64,000 bases of DNA, from contig DATION010000005.1 of assembly GCA_035473115.1 (NCBI GenBank), positions 4,399 to 68,398 on the forward strand. The letters run 5' to 3'. The translations under genes and the position numbers were made by a program. Below, piece after piece: positions 912 to 60,371 of this stretch. The DNA comes from Candidatus Udaeobacter sp. (GTDB lineage Bacteria; Patescibacteriota; Patescibacteriia; Magasanikbacterales; GWA2-37-8). Every line of letters starts with the position of its first letter. Positions within the stretch are counted from its first letter, which is position 1. The notes beneath the pieces were generated by a model. It was given only the letters and a program-made list of their open reading frames with translations. It ran no database searches and was not told the DNA's origin.

Positions 912-1005
912 TGTCATTCCGAACTTTGTGTGAGGAATCTATTCCATAAAGTATAGATCCCTCGTCACCCGCTCTTCGCGAAGAGCGGGTTAACTCGGGA
1001 TGACA
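912..1005 (+). repeat. Palindromic repeat family 1, copy 1 (TGTCATTCCGAA ... CTCGGGATGACA termini with internal hairpins)
   Basis: Near-identical to the reverse complement of 4476-4588 and to 37130-37219. Contains an inner GAGGAATCTAT/ATAGATCCCTC stem and an ACCCGCTCTTCG/CGAAGAGCGGGT hairpin. Lies 4 nt after the tsaD stop and overlaps the dnaE stop. Confidence 0.85.
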
Positions 1006-4000
1006 GTAAGCAATTCATCTTTTAACTCCTCGCAATCTTTAACCAAAAACGAGGTTTTAATTATTTTATCTTCAACTTTTAAAACCACCGGCTTATCCCC
1101 GGGATATTTTTTTAAAACACTTTTTATAGCATCAGCTTTATTTTTTAACTGCTCAGCGCTAACTATTATTTCAAAAGATTCATTTGCATCAAAAGAAACT
1201 TTTGATTCATCTGCTTCTTTTTTAGCATTATTTTGCGCGCCTACAGACATCTGCTTTGCCAAAATCGGAGCGTTTTCCGGCGTAAGCAAATAAGCTTTTT
1301 CTACAAACAACTTATCATCGCCTTCTTCTTCGGAAGTGCGGCCAATCACACAAACCGGTTTGCCTTCCACCCAAACATCAGCAGTAGTTTCATAAGTTTT
1401 CGGAAAGATTAACAACTCCAGATTGCTGGTAGTATCTAAAATTTTGGCAAACATCATGGCTTTGCCGCCGCGAGTGATTTTTTTCTTGGTTGAATCAATC
1501 ATACCCCCAACCACCACCCATTGATTTCTGGACTGACTGGACAAATCTTTAAGCGGAGTCAAAACATCCTTCATTATCTTTTGATAAATTGTAAACGGAT
1601 GCGAAGTAACATACAGACCAAGCAGTTCTTTTTCCCATAAGAGCTTTTCATCTTCACTAGCATTGGGCGCTGAGGCTAATTGAATTTTGGCAGACATATC
1701 TATATTGGTGCCGGCAAATAAAGAATTTTGATTGGCAGGACTTTTTTCATGAATCTGTTTAATAAAAGCCAAAATATTTTCTATATTCCCGGCCAAATAA
1801 CCGCGATCATAACCAAAACAATCCAATGCGCCGCATTTTATCAAACTTTCCAAAGATTTTTTATTCAAATCTCTATCCTGTACTCGGGTAAGCAAATCTT
1901 GCAAATTTTTATATTTACCATTGGCTTTGCGTTCACGATAAATAGCTTCGGCAATATGTTCACCCAGGTTTTTAATGCCATTTAAACCAAAACGGATATG
2001 CGGTTGCGATCCATCTTCGGGAGAAATCATCGCAAAATTCTTAAAGCTTTCGTTGATGTCCGGCGGCAAAACTTTTACTCCCATTCTTTCCGCTTCATAG
2101 ATAACTTCCGGTACTTTATCAATATCACCGCTTTCGGCAATCAAAATAGCGGTCATATATTGCACTGGAAAATTGGCTTTTAGATAAGCGGTCTGATAAG
2201 CCACCACCGCATAACTGGCCGCATGAGCTTTGTTAAAACCATAAGCGGCAAATGGTTCGATGCGCTGCCAAAGATTATTAATCTTCTCCGGCGGCAACTT
2301 GCCAATTTCTTTGGCGCCTTTATAAAACTTTTCTTTCTGCTTAGCCATTTCTTCGGGAATCTTCTTACCCATCGCTTTGCGGAATTTATCGGCTTCTTCC
2401 CAGTTATAACCGGCCAAATTTATCGCTGTAAGCAACACATCGTCTTGATAAACAATTAATCCCAAAGACTGATCCAGATAATCTTTCATTCTCGGATCTT
2501 CGTATTCTATCAACTGCGGATTATTTTTTCTTTGAATATAATCGGGGATAGAATCCATTGGGCCGGGGCGAAACAAAGCCACCATCGCCATGATATCAAA
2601 AATTGAAGTGGGTTTAAGTTCTTTTAAATATCTGGTCATGCCGGAACTGGCCAGCTGAAACACACCAACAGTTTCACCGCGCGCCAACATTTCATAAGTT
2701 TTTTTATCATCCCATGGATACAAATTGTGCACATCAATTTTTTTACCGGTTGTTTTGGCAATAATTTCTACGGCGTGACCTAAAATTGATAAATTGCGAA
2801 TACCCAAAAAATCCATCTTCAAAACTCCGGCTGCTTCCACCGAATGCATTTCGTATTGAGTAATTATTCTTTCACCGCCCGTTTCCAGCTGCACGGGAGT
2901 AAAATCAGTCAAAGGAGTCGGCGAAATAACTACCCCGGCCGCGTGAATAGAAGTATGCCGAGCACAGCCTTCTACTTTTTGCGCCAAGTCCAGCAAACGT
3001 TTGACATCGGCATTTTTTTCATATAACTTTTTTAATTCCGGTTCCAGGTTCAAAGCTTTAGCAATAGTCATCTGAAAACCTTGGGCGCCAAAAGGAATAA
3101 GTTTGGAGACTTGATCACAAAAAGAGTATGGAAAACCCAAAGCTCGCCCCACATCTCGCACTGCTCCGCGCGCGGCCATCGTACCAAAAGTAATAATTTG
3201 CGCCACTTTATCGGCCCCGTATTTTTTAGTTACATAAGCAATCATTTCGTCACGCTTATCATCGGCAAAATCACCATCCACATCCGGCGGGCTAGGACGA
3301 AACGGATTTAAAAATCTTTCAAAAGGAAGTTTAAAAAACAAAGGGTTAACTGTCACAATACCCATAGCATACGAAACTATAGATCCTGCCGCAGATCCTC
3401 TGGTTGTAACCATAATATTGTTATTGCGAGCATAACCAATATAATCAGCTACGGTTAAAAAATACGGCGAGTAGCCTTTGGTCGCGATAATATCCAATTC
3501 ATAATCGACGCGCTTTCTCACTTCATCCGTTATTTCTAGTAATTTTGGCAATTTTTCATATACTTGTTCGCGCAAATACTCATTAGCTGTTTTCCCTTCC
3601 GGAATTTCTATGGCCGGAAAGTGCCACTTGTTTAATTCTAAAACCAAATTGGCACGCTCAGCTATTTTTACGGTATTAGTAATTGCTTCCGGCGTATGTT
3701 TAAAACGATTAATAATATCTTTTGCCGGAGCCAAAGAACAATCAAAGCCGCTCATACTCATACGATTTTCTTCATCCAGCGTCCGGCCGTCTCTGATACA
3801 AGTCAAAATATCTTGCGCTTCGGCATCTTCCGGTTCTAAGTAATGTGAATCGCGAGTAACAATTAACGGAATGCCGGTGTCTTTAGATAGTTGAGCAAGT
3901 TTTGTATTCAATTCCATCTGTCCTTCCAGACCGGGCAGATCCATCATTTCCAAATAAAAATTTCCTTTACCAAAAATTTCTTCGTATTCTAAAGCAACTT

Positions 4001-4481
4001 TTTTAGCTTTGGCATAATTATCTTCTTTGCGTAAAATCCAAGGAATTTCTCCGCTAAAACAGGCCGAAGAAGCAACTAAGCCTTCATGGTATTGTTTTAA
4101 TAATTCTTTATCAATTCTTGGTTTATAATAAAAACCTTCCAAGTTAGACAGAGAAGAAAGTTTCATTAAATTTTTGTAGCCCGTATAATCTAAAGCTAAT
4201 AAAATAAGATGATAATATTTATCGTCTTTATCTTTATCAAAACGGCTACCCGGAGCCAAGTAGGCTTCCATGCCGATAATTGGTTTTATTCCCTCTTTTT
4301 GGCAGCACTCATAAAATTCAATGGCGCCATACATATTGCCATGATCGGTCAGCGCCAAAGCTTTATAACCTAAACTTTTGGCTTTAGACACCAAATCAGG
4401 AATTTTGGATAATCCGTCTAAAAGAGAATAATGGGAGTGAACGTGAAGATGGACAAAATCAGACATACTATTGGTTGTCAT
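990..4481 (-). CDS. dnaE: DNA polymerase III alpha subunit DnaE
   Basis: PHP-domain N-terminus with FVHLHVHSHYSLLDG and full-length polIII alpha homology. The reported ORF has a 29-aa N-terminal extension running through repeat copy 2. The most likely start is ATG 4479-4481 (MTTNSMSDFVH), alternatively 4466 (MSDFVHLHVHS). Confidence 0.9.
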   Translation of the reverse strand: MTTNSMSDFVHLHVHSHYSLLDGLSKIPDLVSKAKSLGYKALALTDHGNMYGAIEFYECCQKEGIKPIIGMEAYLAPGSRFDKDKDDKYYHLILLALDYTGYKNLMKLSSLSNLEGFYYKPRIDKELLKQYHEGLVASSACFSGEIPWILRKEDNYAKAKKVALEYEEIFGKGNFYLEMMDLPGLEGQMELNTKLAQLSKDTGIPLIVTRDSHYLEPEDAEAQDILTCIRDGRTLDEENRMSMSGFDCSLAPAKDIINRFKHTPEAITNTVKIAERANLVLELNKWHFPAIEIPEGKTANEYLREQVYEKLPKLLEITDEVRKRVDYELDIIATKGYSPYFLTVADYIGYARNNNIMVTTRGSAAGSIVSYAMGIVTVNPLFFKLPFERFLNPFRPSPPDVDGDFADDKRDEMIAYVTKKYGADKVAQIITFGTMAARGAVRDVGRALGFPYSFCDQVSKLIPFGAQGFQMTIAKALNLEPELKKLYEKNADVKRLLDLAQKVEGCARHTSIHAAGVVISPTPLTDFTPVQLETGGERIITQYEMHSVEAAGVLKMDFLGIRNLSILGHAVEIIAKTTGKKIDVHNLYPWDDKKTYEMLARGETVGVFQLASSGMTRYLKELKPTSIFDIMAMVALFRPGPMDSIPDYIQRKNNPQLIEYEDPRMKDYLDQSLGLIVYQDDVLLTAINLAGYNWEEADKFRKAMGKKIPEEMAKQKEKFYKGAKEIGKLPPEKINNLWQRIEPFAAYGFNKAHAASYAVVAYQTAYLKANFPVQYMTAILIAESGDIDKVPEVIYEAERMGVKVLPPDINESFKNFAMISPEDGSQPHIRFGLNGIKNLGEHIAEAIYRERKANGKYKNLQDLLTRVQDRDLNKKSLESLIKCGALDCFGYDRGYLAGNIENILAFIKQIHEKSPANQNSLFAGTNIDMSAKIQLASAPNASEDEKLLWEKELLGLYVTSHPFTIYQKIMKDVLTPLKDLSSQSRNQWVVVGGMIDSTKKKITRGGKAMMFAKILDTTSNLELLIFPKTYETTADVWVEGKPVCVIGRTSEEEGDDKLFVEKAYLLTPENAPILAKQMSVGAQNNAKKEADESKVSFDANESFEIIVSAEQLKNKADAIKSVLKKYPGDKPVVLKVEDKIIKTSFLVKDCEELKDELLTVIPS

Positions 4482-4588
4482 CCCGAGTGAACCCGCTCTT
4501 CGCGAAGGGCGGGTGACGAGGGATCTATACCGAATTATTAAATAATAATGTATAGATTCCTCACCCACTATGGGGATTCGGAATGACA
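4476..4588 (-). repeat. Palindromic repeat family 1, copy 2 (inverted relative to copy 1)
   Basis: Reverse complement matches copy 1, including the ACCCGC(C/T)CTTCGCGAAGAGCGGGT hairpin. It carries an extra AT-rich palindromic loop (ATTATTAAATAATAAT). The terminal ...TGTCAT supplies the dnaE ATG. Confidence 0.85.
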
Positions 4589-8370: not shown

Positions 8371-9402
8371 TTAAAATTGTTCCAAAAATTTCATGTTGCC
8401 GCTTTCCAAGAGCCGCACATCTTCTATGCCATACTTAAGCATCACCATACGAGTCAAACCAAAACCAAAAGCAAAACCTTGATACTCATTTGGATCAATG
8501 CCGCCGGCGCGCAACACATTAGGATGAATCATGCCGCCTGGCATTGCTTCTAGCCAACCGGAATTTTTGCATACCCGACAGCCTTTGCCAGCGCAGATAA
8601 AACAGGTTACTTCTCCGCGCACGCCCGGCTCCACGAACGGATAATATTTTGGCATGAGACGAATTTTGGTATCTTTGCCAAACAGATGATCGGCCACTGC
8701 CTGAAACACGCCTTTCATGTGACTAAAATTTATTTTTTTATCAATCACTACGCCGTCAAGCTGATAAAAAGTATGTTCATGCCGCGGATCAGTTGATTCG
8801 TTGCGATAACATTTGCCCGGCACAATGGCCCGCAGCGGCGCGCCATATTTTTGCATGGCTCGCACCTGAACTGAAGTGGTATGAGTACGCATTACCCAAT
8901 CAGCATTGCCTTTGATATAAAAAGTATCCTGCATATCTCGAGCCGGATGAGTTTCGGGAATATTTAAAGCGGTAAAATTATAAAAATCACTTTCTAGTTC
9001 CGGACCGTCAAGCACCATAAAACCCATGGAGGTAAAAAAATCTTCCAAGTCATCCTGAATTAAAGTATTGGGATGAAAATGGCCAATCGCTTTTTTTGGC
9101 AAAGCTGGCTGAGTAATATCGACTCTTTCTTTTTCTAACATTTCATTAAGTCCGGCGGCCGAGAGTTCTTTTTTCTTAGCGGCTAAAGCGTCCTCAATTT
9201 CTTTTTTCACTTCGTTGGCCAAACGGCCAGTTTCTTTTCTGGCATCGTCGCTTAAATCTTTTAAACCTTTTAACAGATTGGTCAGCTCACCGCCACTACG
9301 CCCCAGAAGCTTAATTTCTAATTCTTCCAGCTGCATTTTATCTTTTATGGATTGCAAAGCCAACAGCGCTTCGGTTTTTAGTTGTGCGAATTTTGATTGC
9401 AT
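8371..9402 (-). CDS. pheS: Phenylalanine--tRNA ligase alpha subunit
   Basis: Class II aaRS motifs. Sits 3 nt upstream of pheT on the same strand. Confidence 0.93.
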   Translation of the reverse strand: MQSKFAQLKTEALLALQSIKDKMQLEELEIKLLGRSGGELTNLLKGLKDLSDDARKETGRLANEVKKEIEDALAAKKKELSAAGLNEMLEKERVDITQPALPKKAIGHFHPNTLIQDDLEDFFTSMGFMVLDGPELESDFYNFTALNIPETHPARDMQDTFYIKGNADWVMRTHTTSVQVRAMQKYGAPLRAIVPGKCYRNESTDPRHEHTFYQLDGVVIDKKINFSHMKGVFQAVADHLFGKDTKIRLMPKYYPFVEPGVRGEVTCFICAGKGCRVCKNSGWLEAMPGGMIHPNVLRAGGIDPNEYQGFAFGFGLTRMVMLKYGIEDVRLLESGNMKFLEQF

Positions 9403-14785: not shown

Positions 14786-14896
14786 CAAATCATTATTGAT
14801 TTTTGCAGCGGCCATCGCACCCTCAGATGGGTGCCTGCAGGGCATTTGCCTGTCCCCTTTAGGGGGGCTGCCAGAAAATTAATAATAATTAATTAT
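14786..14896. repeat. Palindromic repeat family 2, copy A (core TTTTTGCAGCGGCCATCGCACCCTCAGATGGGTGCCTGCAGGGCATTTGCC with AT-rich inverted flanks)
   Basis: The core recurs at 40598-40681 and inverted at 24652-24735. Nested stems GCACCC/GGGTGC and TGCAG/CTGCA. Lies between two minus-strand genes. Confidence 0.7.
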
Positions 14897-24644: not shown

Positions 24645-24651
24645 ACGATTT

Positions 24652-24735
24652 AATAGGTGCTAATTTTTTTGTTTCCAAATGCCCTGCGGGCACCCTCCCG
24701 AGGGCGCGATGGAAACTGCTAAAATTGGCACCTAT
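24652..24735. repeat. Palindromic repeat family 2, copy C (inverted orientation) flanked by the 9-bp IR AATAGGTGC/GCACCTATT
   Basis: Its core CCAAATGCCCTGCGGGCACCCTCCCGAGGGCGCGATGG is the reverse complement of the copy A/B cores. The element is 84 nt, the same size as copy B. Confidence 0.65.
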
Positions 24736-37129: not shown

Positions 37130-37219
37130 TGTCATTCCGAATCCCCACTCAGGGGGTGAGGAATCTATTCATTTTAAAGTAAAGATCCCTCGTCGGCTAC
37201 GGCCTCACTCGGGATGACA
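37130..37219 (+). repeat. Palindromic repeat family 1, copy 3
   Basis: TGTCATTCCGAA...TGAGGAATCTAT...AGATCCCTCGTC...CTCGGGATGACA. Its terminal GGGATGACA creates a spurious upstream ATG for nusG. Confidence 0.85.
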
Positions 37220-37231
37220 AACACATTGTAT

Positions 37232-37777
37232 ATGGCAAAACAGACCCTCAACCTTGGCAAACGCTGGTATGTGCTCCACACTTACAGCGGCTACGAAGAA
37301 AACGTAAAAAGCAATCTCGAGCAACGTATCGAGTCTTTTGCCATGCAAGACAAAATTTTTCATATTTTGGTTCCTAAAGAAAAGAAAATAAAAATCAAAA
37401 ACAGCAAACGTTCAGTGGTGGAAGAAAAAATGTTCCCGGGATACGTCTTAGTAGAGATGATTGTAACGGACGATTCTTGGTATGTGGTTCGCAATACTCC
37501 TAATGTTACCGGTTTCGTTGGCTCTGGCACTACCCCAACCCCAATTGATCAAGCTGAAGTTGATGGTTTAGTAAAACGAATGTCCGCTTCCGAACCGCAA
37601 CACAAAATTGACTTTGAAGTTAATACTCCGGTACGTATCACTGATGGACCGTTTAAAAACTTTGAAGGCAAAGTAAGTAATGTTGATCAAGAAAGAGGCA
37701 AAGTTAAAGTTCTTATCACGATGTTCGGTCGCGAAACGCCGGTAGAACTTGACGCAATGCAGGTTAAAAAGATTTAA
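37232..37777 (+). CDS. nusG: Transcription termination/antitermination factor NusG
   Basis: [16 protein letters not shown] domain and a C-terminal KOW. Start trimmed to [14 protein letters not shown]. Confidence 0.9.
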
Positions 37778-40579: not shown

Positions 40580-40597
40580 AAAAAATTAGCTAGTTTA

Positions 40598-40681
40598 ACC
40601 AATACTGATTTTTGCAGTGGCCATCGCACCCTCAGGAGAGTGCCCGCAGGGCATTTGGCTACAAGAAAATTAGTATTGGTT
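40598..40681. repeat. Palindromic repeat family 2, copy B, flanked by the 10-bp IR AACCAATACT/AGTATTGGTT
   Basis: Core TTTTTGCAGTGGCCATCGCACCCTCAGGAGAGTGCCCGCAGGGCATTTGGC. Lies between two minus-strand genes. Confidence 0.7.
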
Positions 40682-40689
40682 AAATATAT

Positions 40690-41999: not shown

Positions 42000-42072
42000 G
42001 CGCCTGTAACTCATCGGTTAGAGTGCCACCCTTATAAGGTGGAAGCAGATGGTTCGATTCCATCCAGGCGCA
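42000..42072 (+). tRNA. tRNA with anticodon UAU (tRNA-Ile, AUA-decoding)
   Basis: Hand-folded cloverleaf: acceptor GCGCCTG/CAGGCGC, D arm ACTC/GAGT, anticodon stem CCACC/GGTGG with loop CTTATAA (U33, UAU, A37), T arm GATGG-TTCGATT-CCATC, discriminator A. No encoded CCA. Confidence 0.75.
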
Positions 42073-52484: not shown

Positions 52485-52566
52485 GGGCGAGTGGCGGAAC
52501 TGGTATACGCGTACGTCTCAGAAGCGTATGGAGCAATCCTTGAGGGTTCGAGTCCCTCCTCGCCCA
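52485..52566 (+). tRNA. tRNA-Leu (anticodon CAG), long variable arm
   Basis: Acceptor GGGCGAG/CTCGCCC, anticodon stem TACGT/GCGTA with loop CTCAGAA, long variable arm, T arm GAGGG-TTCGAGT-CCCTC. Confidence 0.8.
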
Positions 52567-56105: not shown

Positions 56106-56137
56106 AAACACTCCGCAATTACGGAGTGTTTTTTTAT
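56106..56137. terminator. Bidirectional terminator (A7-ACACTCCG-CAATTA-CGGAGTGT-T7) shared by the dehydrogenase gene and the minus-strand rnpB
   Basis: Seen in the sequence. Confidence 0.7.
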
Positions 56138-56510
56138 AGCATAAGCCGAATTTTGTTCCCAATTTTAATCGGGAGATGATCATTTCTCTGGGTTTGGCGT
56201 TGCCACCAACCTCAAGCGAGCGAACTTTTTACCACGCCCTTCGCGAAGGACGTGGCTCTGCTCTTGCGTTCAAGTAAGGATTTAGACGTTTCACCTTTCG
56301 ACTTATTACCTCCATCGAAAGTTAAGCAATATTTTTGATTTCCCAAAAATTTGAGGTTTGCTTTCTCTTTCTTTTCAAAAAGAGACGTTTCTGTTCGCAC
56401 CTCGAGCCTTGCGGCCGACGGGGGTTACCCGCTACCTTTCTCCTTAGTTTTCACCAAGGGAACGTTCGGACTTTCCTCCCTACCAAGTGACAGGGCGATC
56501 ATCGCTATAC
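56136..56510 (-). ncRNA. rnpB: RNase P RNA
   Basis: The minus-strand reading contains GGGAGGAAAGUCCGAAC (P4/CR-I, compare E. coli GGAGGAAAGUCCGGGC), GGAGAAAGGUAGCGGGUAACC (compare GGUGAAAGGGUGCGGUAAGAGC), and a 3'-terminal ACAAAAUUCGGCUUAUGCUAU (compare ACAGAACCCGGCUUAUCGG). P1 pairing AUAGC/GCUAU. ~375 nt, GC-rich. Confidence 0.7.
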
Positions 56511-59171: not shown

Positions 59172-60371
59172 ATGAAAAAGATCGGCATTGATATTCGTTG
59201 CTTAATGTCTCCGCTGCGCGCCGGCGTGGGTGAATATACCCACGAACTGCTGAGCGCTATTTTTAAGCTTGATAAAGAAAACCAGTATTGGCTTTTTTAT
59301 AATTCCCATACAGATGTCTTTGCCCATATTCCACTTTGGTCAGGAAGCAATATTCATTATGTAGCCACCAAATGGCCGAACAAACTATTTAACGCTTTTA
59401 TAAAAATATTTGGCTGGCCAAAACTGGATAAATTAATTTCCCGCAACGGCAAGCTGGATTATTTTTTTTCACCCAACTTTAATTTTACGGCCTTATCCAA
59501 AGATACAAAAAATATTTTAACTGTCCATGATTTATCATTTAAATTTTTTCCACAATTTTTCTCCTTAAAACAAAAATTATGGCACTGGGCAATAAACCCA
59601 AAAAAACAGTGTCAACAAGCCAGTTTTATAATTACTCCTTCGGAAAATACCAAACGGGATATTGTGGATTATTATAAAATCCCAGCAGAAAAAATAAAAG
59701 TTGCGGGCGGCGGTTTATCGGGAATTTTCGTCTGTCATTCTGAGCGTAGCGAAGAATCCCTTAAACCAAGCCAAAGGGATCCTTCGGTCGCTTCACTCTC
59801 TCAGGATGACATACGAAAAAAATATAATTTACCAAATAAATTTATTCTCTGTTTGGGAGCGGTTGAATCGCGAAAAAATATCATTGGCTTAATTGAAGCT
59901 TTTGAAAAATTTTCCAAAACTACAACGGGCTATTCTTTGGTAATTGCCGGCAGTGGCCGAGGCTGGAAAAATAAAAAAATATACGCTCGAGCTTTGGCTT
60001 CACCGCTGCGCAATAATATCGAATTTATCGGTTATGTGGATGCGCAAGATAAGCCAACTCTATACTCTATGTCTGAACTGTTTGTTTATCCAAGTTTTTA
60101 TGAAGGATTTGGTTTTCCGGTTTTGGAGGCCATGGCCTGCGGTGTGCCGGTAATAACTTCTAACCGATCTTCTTTGCCGGAAATTACCGAAGGCGCAGCC
60201 TATTTAATTAACCCCAACCGCCCAGCTGAAATCGCTGCAGCAATTACAAAACTGATTTCTGACACAAAGCTACGAGAATATTTTATAAAAAAAGGACTAG
60301 AGCAGGTTAAGAAATTTAGTTGGCAAGCCGCAGCTCAAAAATGGCTAGATATTTTAAATAAATCAACTTAA
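59172..60371 (+). CDS. Glycosyltransferase family 4 carrying an in-frame palindromic-element insertion
   Basis: EGFGFPVLEAMACGVPVITS. An extra ~27 aa (VCHSERSEESLKPSQRDPSVASL) sits between the two Rossmann halves and is encoded by repeat copy 4. Confidence 0.8.
   Translation: MKKIGIDIRCLMSPLRAGVGEYTHELLSAIFKLDKENQYWLFYNSHTDVFAHIPLWSGSNIHYVATKWPNKLFNAFIKIFGWPKLDKLISRNGKLDYFFSPNFNFTALSKDTKNILTVHDLSFKFFPQFFSLKQKLWHWAINPKKQCQQASFIITPSENTKRDIVDYYKIPAEKIKVAGGGLSGIFVCHSERSEESLKPSQRDPSVASLSQDDIRKKYNLPNKFILCLGAVESRKNIIGLIEAFEKFSKTTTGYSLVIAGSGRGWKNKKIYARALASPLRNNIEFIGYVDAQDKPTLYSMSELFVYPSFYEGFGFPVLEAMACGVPVITSNRSSLPEITEGAAYLINPNRPAEIAAAITKLISDTKLREYFIKKGLEQVKKFSWQAAAQKWLDILNKST
59733..59811 (+). repeat. 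Palindromic repeat family 1, copy 4, inserted in-frame inside the GT4 coding sequence
   Basis: TGTCATTCTGAG...GAAGAATCCCTT...AAGGGATCCTTC...CTCAGGATGACA. Its terminal stems show compensatory changes relative to copies 1-3 (CCGA/TCGG becomes CTGA/TCAG). Confidence 0.8.

Follow-up and report, generated by a model that had tools for sequence, protein, structure and literature searches.

Four copies of a structured palindromic repeat lie in one stretch of 64,000 nucleotides from a CPR-like genome (the window, below), and the question they raise is what kind of element this is, and whether it acts at the level of RNA or of DNA. A preliminary description placed the copies at 912-1005 (+), 4476-4588 (inverted), 37130-37219 (+) and 59733-59811 (+), and these coordinates and orientations are all borne out here. 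Each copy is a doublet of two arms. The copies and their parts, with the gene that hosts the fourth copy, are as follows.

912..1005, + strand: copy 1, a doublet of two SRM-type hairpin arms set head-to-head, between convergent genes
912..941, + strand: T-type arm of copy 1 (ATTCC..GGAAT), its apical part short and degenerate
954..1005, - strand: C-type arm of copy 1 (ATCCC..GGGAT), with a 10-bp apical hairpin ACCCGCTCTT/AAGAGCGGGT
4476..4588, - strand: copy 2, a doublet in the opposite orientation, directly upstream of the dnaE start (ATG at 4466)
4476..4527, + strand: C-type arm of copy 2, its apical hairpin identical to that of the C-type arm of copy 1
4553..4588, - strand: T-type arm of copy 2, with apical hairpin CCCA..TGGG
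37130..37219, + strand: copy 3, a doublet in the secE-nusG spacer
37130..37167, + strand: T-type arm of copy 3
37182..37219, - strand: C-type arm of copy 3
59733..59811, + strand: copy 4, a doublet in frame within a family-1 glycosyltransferase gene
59733..59760, + strand: T-type arm of copy 4, its second variable pair T-A (ATTCT..AGAAT)
59776..59811, - strand: C-type arm of copy 4 (ATCCT..AGGAT), its apical part degenerate, folding weakly when alone
59172..60371, + strand: host gene of copy 4, glycosyltransferase family 1, 399 aa

The 12-mer TGTCATYCYGAR has eight exact matches in the window, which make up four inward-facing pairs of termini and confirm the 12-nt terminal inverted repeats reported earlier. 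Allowing one mismatch gives 10 matches where 1.03 are expected, and 0 of 100 shuffles reach 10; the one-mismatch matches at 9048 and 33497 have no arm structure and are dismissed as chance. The 12-mer search finds no copies in the window beyond the four. The inner GARGAATC/GATCCYTC boxes and the optional extra hairpins are present as well. The preliminary description had suggested folding each copy, and whole elements do fold far better than shuffled sequence on either strand (z = -4.3 to -8.0 as RNA, -3.4 to -5.9 as DNA). The claim of a real family of structured palindromic repeats is upheld.

Copy 1 lies where a convergent pair of genes meets, with a tsaD-like ORF ending at 908 and dnaE ending at 990; the stop codon of dnaE and its final five codons (TVIPS) come from the C-type arm of copy 1 (954..1005). 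Copy 2 is inverted with respect to copy 1, and the two show 96% identity over 55 nt when compared as complementary strands. A composite transposon around dnaE, made from inverted copies 1 and 2, was considered and rejected: there are no duplications, and dnaE is an ordinary essential gene. Copy 4 supplies the peptide CHSERSEESLKPSQRDPSVASLSQDD in the linker that joins the two domains of the glycosyltransferase. The preliminary description did not mention that this copy is intragenic and not intergenic.

All four window copies are head-to-head heterodimers of one T-type and one C-type arm. Read 5' to 3' on its own strand, an arm has the layout TGTC / ATYCY / GA / variable hairpin / GA / RGRAT / C, that is, an unpaired TGTC tail, a 5-bp stem ATYCY/RGRAT opening with A-T and T-A, a 2x2 GA/GA internal loop (hence GA-type arms, below), a variable apical hairpin, and an unpaired C(TC) tail, with an overall length of 25-49 nt. 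Within a doublet the + strand carries the left arm and the - strand the right arm; the whole element resembles one long imperfect palindrome because both arms belong to a single hairpin family, inverted. Complementary variable bases inside the arms lengthen the inverted repeat, by at least 3 bp in 71 of 191 doublets where about 12 would be expected. In its canonical short form the element reads TGTCATTCTGAG-CGAAGC-GAAGAATC-TC...GA-GATCCTTC-GCTTCG-CTCAGGATGACA, and the apical hairpins of the two arms vary independently (e.g. copy 1 and loci L024, L032 and L050). Outside the window, adjacent arms are found in a short +- configuration 44 times, in a short -+ configuration 28 times, as ++ 7 times and as -- 4 times.

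The unpaired tails are near-invariant. In 254 arms that were anchored on the stem alone, the upstream bases are T in 89%, G in 98%, T in 99% and C in 98%, and the downstream base is C in 99%; the TGTC...C tails are intact in all eight window arms. An arm thus has a direction, and the members of a doublet run on opposite strands. Taken singly as ssDNA, the eight window arms all fold to one topology. In isolation the short arms have only marginal stability (-0.7 to -6.3 kcal/mol, z about -1), and the minimum-energy fold of a free strand is a long-range extended hairpin, not the local arms, so the evidence for local hairpins is comparative and not thermodynamic.

The comparison covers 258 arms, drawn from loci unselected for the stem-pair feature. 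The first variable stem pair is T-A in 159 arms, C-G in 66, G-C in 24, A-T in 1 and non-Watson-Crick in about 8, while the second is T-A or C-G. In 76 doublets from unbiased loci (one doublet may count on both strands), the diagnostic position is Watson-Crick within the left arm in 75 and within the right arm in 75, and across the arms in only 26. Fifteen doublets have arms that differ at the pair substituted in copy 4; in these, pairing within the arm is kept and pairing across the arms is lost. Arm subtypes combine freely (T/T 18, T/C 10, C/T 6, G/T 3, G/C 3, C/C 2). By this comparison the conserved structure is a separate predicted hairpin for each half, not a long terminal stem.

Two earlier observations can be reinterpreted in these terms. 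The compensatory C-G to T-A change reported for copy 4 is real, and is explained within each arm rather than by a terminal stem. The conserved wobble and mismatch are also present, as a fixed T:G and a fixed A:C, only as the product of two arm subtypes: one of each appears at fixed places, whichever strand is read, because the copies are T-type plus C-type heterodimers, and the subtypes ATTC..GAAT and ATCC..GGAT are each Watson-Crick within themselves. The broader proposal, that pairing is kept by compensatory changes, holds once more arms are compared (75 of 76 within the arm).

The repeat element is not specific to CPR bacteria. A scan of one genome per species with the pattern TGTCATTCYGAR-N(3-33)-GARGAATC-N(8-38)-GATCCYTC finds at least 120 loci, from about twenty phyla by record title, which agrees with an expectation of many additional copies elsewhere and does not uphold the idea of a CPR-specific feature. 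The loci listed include Acidobacteriota, Nitrospirota, several classes of Pseudomonadota, Clostridia, Bacteroidota (among them cultured Pedobacter and Mucilaginibacter), Chloroflexota and Planctomycetota, and further Verrucomicrobiota, Omnitrophota, Gemmatimonadota, Aquificota, Deinococcota, Chlorobiota and several Patescibacteria. Listed loci and window together hold at least 137 instances, 92 of them with an exact right terminus, and some genomes carry tandem arrays (L031, L091, L006).

The preliminary description did not recognise the element as a named family. It does in fact belong to described groups, the CGTC/TGTC-tagged REPs (PMC3733652) and the NTS/Ssn-related motifs (SRMs; PMC11893778). 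The CGTC-tagged REPs were catalogued by Di Nocera et al. 2013, BMC Genomics 14:522 (PMC3733652), at that time mainly from alpha-Proteobacteria and five phyla and with no dedicated enzyme then known; they include dRS3 of Neisseria and RPE-4 and RPE-6 of Rickettsia. Their tag is "changed to TGTC in many repeats", and a CCTC variant is also accepted. They are mostly head-to-head dimers, often heterodimers, with structured spacers that have complementary ends; some dimers are intragenic and encode 20-30 aa, and some units supply the ends of ORFs (PMC3733652). Like them, the window arms show a TGTC tag (8 of 8 arms; 89-99% per tag base elsewhere), a stem starting with A-T and a short unpaired 3' tail, and the window copies are head-to-head dimers (4 of 4), with copy 4 in frame. 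The differences are in the stem, 8-9 bp with a 4-5-nt loop in CGTC-tagged REPs as against 5 bp plus GA/GA loop plus variable hairpins in the window arms, and in the 3' tail, which is CCA in CGTC-tagged REPs and CTC or CTA in GA-type arms. Copy 4 also recalls the Rickettsia palindromic elements (RPE), reportedly found in protein-coding genes by Ogata et al. in 2000: in both cases a palindromic repeat sits in frame in a gene, and the peptide that it adds is tolerated in a linker or at the protein surface, but neither the lineage of the host nor the subtype of the sequence is the same. RPE-1, a longer class, is an element of another kind.

The NTS of Neisseria is CGTCATTCCCGCGMAVGCGGGAATCYRG, which contains dRS3 (Chenal et al. 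2025, Nat Commun 16:2388, PMC11893778). SRMs across bacteria flank ssnA, a 94-aa single-domain GIY-YIG gene of CDD family cd10448, and about 19% of SRM-rich genomes have no Ssn homolog (PMC11893778). SsnA recognises the hairpin only as ssDNA (neither dsDNA nor RNA nor the reverse strand is bound), and its cut falls a few nucleotides upstream of the hairpin. Cleavage depends chiefly on the three bases 5' of the palindrome, and binding on the C directly 3' of it (PMC11893778). In N. meningitidis, SsnA lowers transformation by NTS-bearing DNA. The arrangement NTS-ssnA-NTS has been likened to an IS, and an analogy to REP/RAYT drawn, although mobility was not demonstrated (PMC11893778).

The window repeats share with NTS and SRM an oriented hairpin with 5' (H)GTC, a stem opening ATTCC...GGAAT and an invariant C after the stem. 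They also share many dispersed copies in many phyla, and an IS-like layout of arm, gene and arm, on one or both sides of a GIY-YIG gene of about 94 aa. They differ from the continuous GC-rich stem of NTS in having a 5-bp stem, a GA/GA internal loop and a variable-length apical hairpin, and from NTS/SRM as published in their grouping as tight head-to-head doublets that combine two subtypes. They occur in a CPR-like genome, a group unmentioned in PMC11893778, and one window copy is in frame in a gene, where 2% of NTS are reported as intragenic (PMC11893778). Unlike NTS-ssnA, the variant has no nuclease gene within the window. The published motif HGTCWYN(0-2)YYVSBRHN(0-5)WNVSBRGN(0-2)RNCYNB finds 0 matches in the window and 0 among 586 GA-type arms; the NTS consensus and the arms at locus L042 do match this degenerate motif. 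What places the window arms among the SRMs is the set of shared features together with the associated gene, and not the definition as published.

The associated gene is found at related loci. A BLASTN search of plasmids with a canonical copy yields matches in two Planktothrix plasmids, one of which has a 94-aa GIY-YIG gene set amid copies of the element. A GIY-YIG gene (PF01541, E = 8e-16) lies between arms in L121, L095 and L042, and the homologs that adjoin the element in L095 (Portnoybacteria) and L042 (proteobacterial) have 56-61% identity, a range of 51-56% being also given for that of L042. A metagenome scan with the Planktothrix-plasmid, L095 and L042 proteins gives 544 relatives among 600 candidates. 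At the loci of the best 80 of these 544, the terminal 8-mer is found upstream (within 160 nt) in 60, downstream (within 170 nt) in 64, and 49 loci have it on both flanks; the background rate is 0.06 per 170 nt. The usual unit consists of left arm, ATG...stop and right arm, about 350-400 bp in all; in a minority layout the gene stands between two complete doublets (e.g. L095). Arm-flanked genes, as at L140, L132, L135, L143, L163, L095 and L121, encode single-domain GIY-YIG proteins of 92-97 aa in many phyla.

These proteins match only PF01541, and their nearest solved structures are the UPF0213 proteins 1ZG2 and 1YWL, the match being weak. Scans of the nuclease with NCBIfam and PADLOC find no specific family, and a homolog search for a name that would link it to Neisseria SsnA returns generic names only. 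The arms that flank the L042 homolog agree with the Neisseria NTS consensus at 26 of 28 positions and also fit the published SRM motif. The probable link of these nucleases to the Ssn family rests on their size, their single-domain architecture and the NTS-like arms at L042. In all-against-all BLASTP of the ORFs within 2 kb of 137 copies, no neighbour family is found in more than 7 of 120 loci. Since the same two arms, extended inward by a few complementary bases, flank GIY-YIG genes, the window elements represent a tiny IS-like unit (arm - ssn - arm) in its gene-less, MITE/REPIN-like form. A tblastn search finds no GIY-YIG/Ssn gene within the 64-kb window, and the window copies may be orphans, without a cognate nuclease in the source genome.

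The glycosyltransferase gene and the secE-nusG spacer give a view of gain and turnover. The closest ortholog of the glycosyltransferase (81% identity, 377 aa) lacks the insert at both the protein and the DNA level, and has a 9-aa native linker where the window protein has a 27-aa insert. The filled site is longer than the empty one by 54 nt, where a clean insertion would add 79 nt, and the junctions are thus imprecise. In other orthologs the same linker is occupied by SRM-derived inserts that differ from this one (CHSEKSEES...SLGMT, VIPT..EES...GGMT, and an NTS-type SFPQQRESR...AAGMT), and this site has therefore been colonised repeatedly. A related strain, L203, has copy 3 at the same secE-nusG site, but there the right arm has exchanged its apical hairpin for that of copies 1 and 2. 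This replacement indicates exchange between copies.

It is very probable, on all of this evidence, that the window repeats are head-to-head pairs of SRM hairpins, of the CGTC/TGTC-tagged REP class, which act as DNA and not as RNA. The quite improbable alternative is a structured non-coding RNA, such as a terminator, an mRNA stabiliser or a processing site, co-transcribed with the flanking genes. The predicted folds are strong (on both strands, as it happens), all four window copies can be read as sense to some neighbouring gene, and REP-type repeats are known to affect mRNA stability in other bacteria (PMC3733652). The sense orientation noted in the preliminary description turns out to be a small-sample effect. 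Over 137 instances, with crude gene calls (greedy longest ORFs), co-directional copies are sense in 26 cases and antisense in 21, and intragenic copies are sense in 8 and antisense in 12; 18 instances lie between convergent and 14 between divergent genes, with no divergent depletion. In the absence of an orientation bias, the RNA-level role proposed earlier is not favoured. No T-run or other flank consensus is found beside the elements. Rfam gives no match at the copies or across the whole window at the gathering threshold, and at E <= 1, for four loci with canonical copies, only chance matches to miRNA hairpins. The conserved tails are strand-specific and lie on opposite strands, which fits recognition of DNA and not a single transcript, and RNA with the sequence of the DNA target was not bound by SsnA (PMC11893778). 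A hammerhead-like ribozyme core (CUGAG...GAAG), picked out by eye, was also rejected, as the CUGANGA/GAAA spacing is not there and no strand bias is seen.

A second alternative keeps the DNA-level role and changes the enzyme. Classical REPs or REPINs, mobilised by a RAYT (a tyrosine HUH transposase of the IS200/IS605 type), have the same architecture of hairpin units recognised as ssDNA, in inverted doublets that fold to a long hairpin. They too have two doublet units that differ consistently, an enzyme gene flanked by its own repeats, no target duplication, and an intergenic, occasionally intragenic, distribution; Di Nocera et al. class both kinds as REPs (PMC3733652). This is nevertheless very unlikely here. 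The tag is TGTC and not GTAG, the gene between the arms encodes a hydrolytic GIY-YIG nuclease and not a Y1 transposase, the 120 loci compared hold no other recurrent neighbour family, and no RAYT flanked by CGTC-type units was found by Di Nocera et al. (PMC3733652). REP/RAYT repeats are moreover species-specific, whereas the GA-type repeat sequence is common to many phyla. A conventional MITE, moved by the DDE transposase of an IS that recognises TG...CA terminal inverted repeats, would suit the TG...CA termini and the small, dispersed, multi-copy elements, and yet is hardly credible: 108 full copies show no target-site duplication of 2-5 bp at any boundary offset and no flank consensus, no neighbour family resembles a transposase, and the cargo between the arms is a nuclease of 92-97 aa. 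IS3/IS21-type TG..CA ends and an integron attC were likewise rejected, there being no core sites or duplications. It is a more serious, if still doubtful, possibility that the repeats are of the class preferred here but are inert fossils in this genome, with no nuclease and no activity, merely tolerated, even as residues of a protein linker. Consistent with this are the lack of an Ssn gene within the 64-kb window, the degenerate apical parts of two arms (912-941 and 59776-59811), and the SRM-rich genomes, about 19%, that lack an Ssn homolog (PMC11893778). Against it, a 55-nt stretch is 96% identical between copies 1 and 2, the tail bases critical to Ssn are intact in 8 of 8 arms, and the recent exchange of an apical hairpin in the related strain speaks for ongoing turnover, for which gene conversion alone could suffice.

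If the SRM pairs of the preferred reading work as the Neisseria SsnA-NTS pair does, a cognate Ssn nuclease would bind each arm only when it is single-stranded, during replication, repair or DNA uptake, and would cut a few nucleotides 5' of the TGTC tail. A doublet would then, by the same analogy, receive one nick outside each end, on opposite strands. Cleavage may drive the spread of doublets through copying or homing by way of host repair, which is speculative. GIY-YIG nucleases hydrolyse DNA, without the covalent intermediates used by known transposases. Such a nuclease cannot itself join DNA, and spread would therefore depend on the replication or repair machinery of the host, through copying or homing-like conversion. 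A cellular role in this organism, possibly to limit recombination of incoming ssDNA as in Neisseria, is speculation from the same analogy.

The repeat class and its association with Ssn were known already, and the novelty is modest: a GA-bulged arm type missed by the published SRM motif, the breadth of this variant, and its presence and in-frame insertion in a CPR-like genome. For annotation, the repeats should not be called a new RNA family, and they should be recognised as a source of false N-terminal extensions and odd peptides in gene calls (e.g. CHSERSEES, VIPS, GMT). GA-type arms are abundant and yet missed by the published motif; motif-based surveys therefore undercount the system. Ssn enzymes are under development as site-specific cutters of ssDNA, and new pairs of enzyme and site may be useful tools.

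For the biology of the family, the Ssn/SRM system, characterised in Neisseria, is extended to a distinct arm variant in about twenty phyla including CPR. Mobility is where the free combination of subtypes, the gene between the same arms, and the linker recolonised in some orthologs and empty in the closest one have their bearing. It is conceivable, and we offer it tentatively, that two GA-type arms and the ssn gene between them (arm - ssn - arm, about 350-400 bp) form an autonomous mobile element, active and mechanistically of a new class, spread not by a transposase but by a hydrolytic, ssDNA-specific GIY-YIG nuclease that cuts beside its own hairpins and by copying through host repair or replication. 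The window doublets would be its MITEs, able to colonise protein linkers in frame in CPR bacteria with their streamlined genomes. If this is true, arm - ssn - arm would be among the smallest gene-bearing mobile units known.

Insertion of the doublets, which are head-to-head pairs of TGTC-tagged hairpin arms, into coding sequence is seen in the family-1 glycosyltransferase that hosts copy 4 in frame (window 59172-60371), whose inter-domain linker is a recurrent landing site for repeats. Several of its orthologs (P0006, P0010, P0015, P0029 and P0033 were compared) carry differing repeat-derived peptide inserts at the same linker position, one of them carries two elements there, and the linker of the closest ortholog, P0002, has no insert.

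Repeats also distort ORF calls in the window, at 990-1007, 4464-4483 and 37214-37234. An arm of copy 1 supplies the stop codon and the last five codons (TVIPS) of dnaE. Within the terminal GGATGACA, copies 2 and 3 carry an ATG that is in frame with dnaE and nusG, respectively, and that creates false N-terminal extensions of both; in an exact-protein look-up, NusG is on record only with its start at 37232.

A similar look-up finds the identical glycosyltransferase protein on record, encoded on a 189-kb contig under the NCBI label "MAG TPA: Candidatus Udaeobacter sp." (Verrucomicrobiota). Because G+C in the window is 39.7% and the close homologs come from Patescibacteria (Magasanikbacteria/Parcubacteria), this label may reflect mis-binning. 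A scan of the whole window against Rfam at the gathering threshold returned nothing beyond three genes:

Rfam matches in the window
56132-56508, minus strand, RNase P RNA, bacterial class A (105.6 bits)
42000-42072, plus strand, tRNA gene
52485-52566, plus strand, tRNA gene

The window holds a second intergenic repeat family, unrelated to the doublets, in three copies that share a conserved core of approximately ATTTTTGCAGYGGCCATCGCACCCTCAGRAGGGTGCCYGCAGGGCATTTGG:

Copies of the second intergenic repeat, distinct from the Ssn-type doublets
14788-14851, plus strand
24648-24725, minus strand
40597-40685, plus strand

In two copies the core is enclosed by an outer stem, whose sequence changes between copies while complementarity is kept (AATAGGTGCC/GCACCTATT vs. 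CCAATACTG/AGTATTGG). In the RNAalifold prediction, 9 of 29 pairs have both sides changed, and the family has no match in Rfam. The family may represent either a candidate structured RNA or a further palindromic element.

Elsewhere, four doublets form a tandem array in Pedobacter nototheniae (L031, 3490-4130; period about 134 nt), with truncated solo arms in the spacers, and four form another in a Clostridiales MAG (L091; period about 125 nt). The Planktothrix agardhii plasmid NZ_LR882964.1 (L121; regions of note 700-1700 and 2940-3140) has a GIY-YIG gene and several full or partial repeat copies between drmA and an MmeI/PglX-type gene, a DISARM/BREX-like defence setting. In the sister plasmid (L122) a PIN-domain gene pair occupies this position instead, and in both plasmids the annotated MmeI/PglX-type gene holds an internal doublet.

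A related strain (L203, 230-330) has a doublet at the same secE-nusG site as copy 3 (window 37130-37219), between flanks approximately 95% identical. The apical hairpin of its right arm is of the CACCCGC..GCGGGT type, as in window copies 1 and 2, whereas copy 3 has GGCTACGGCC. This difference suggests that copies have undergone exchange or gene conversion with one another.
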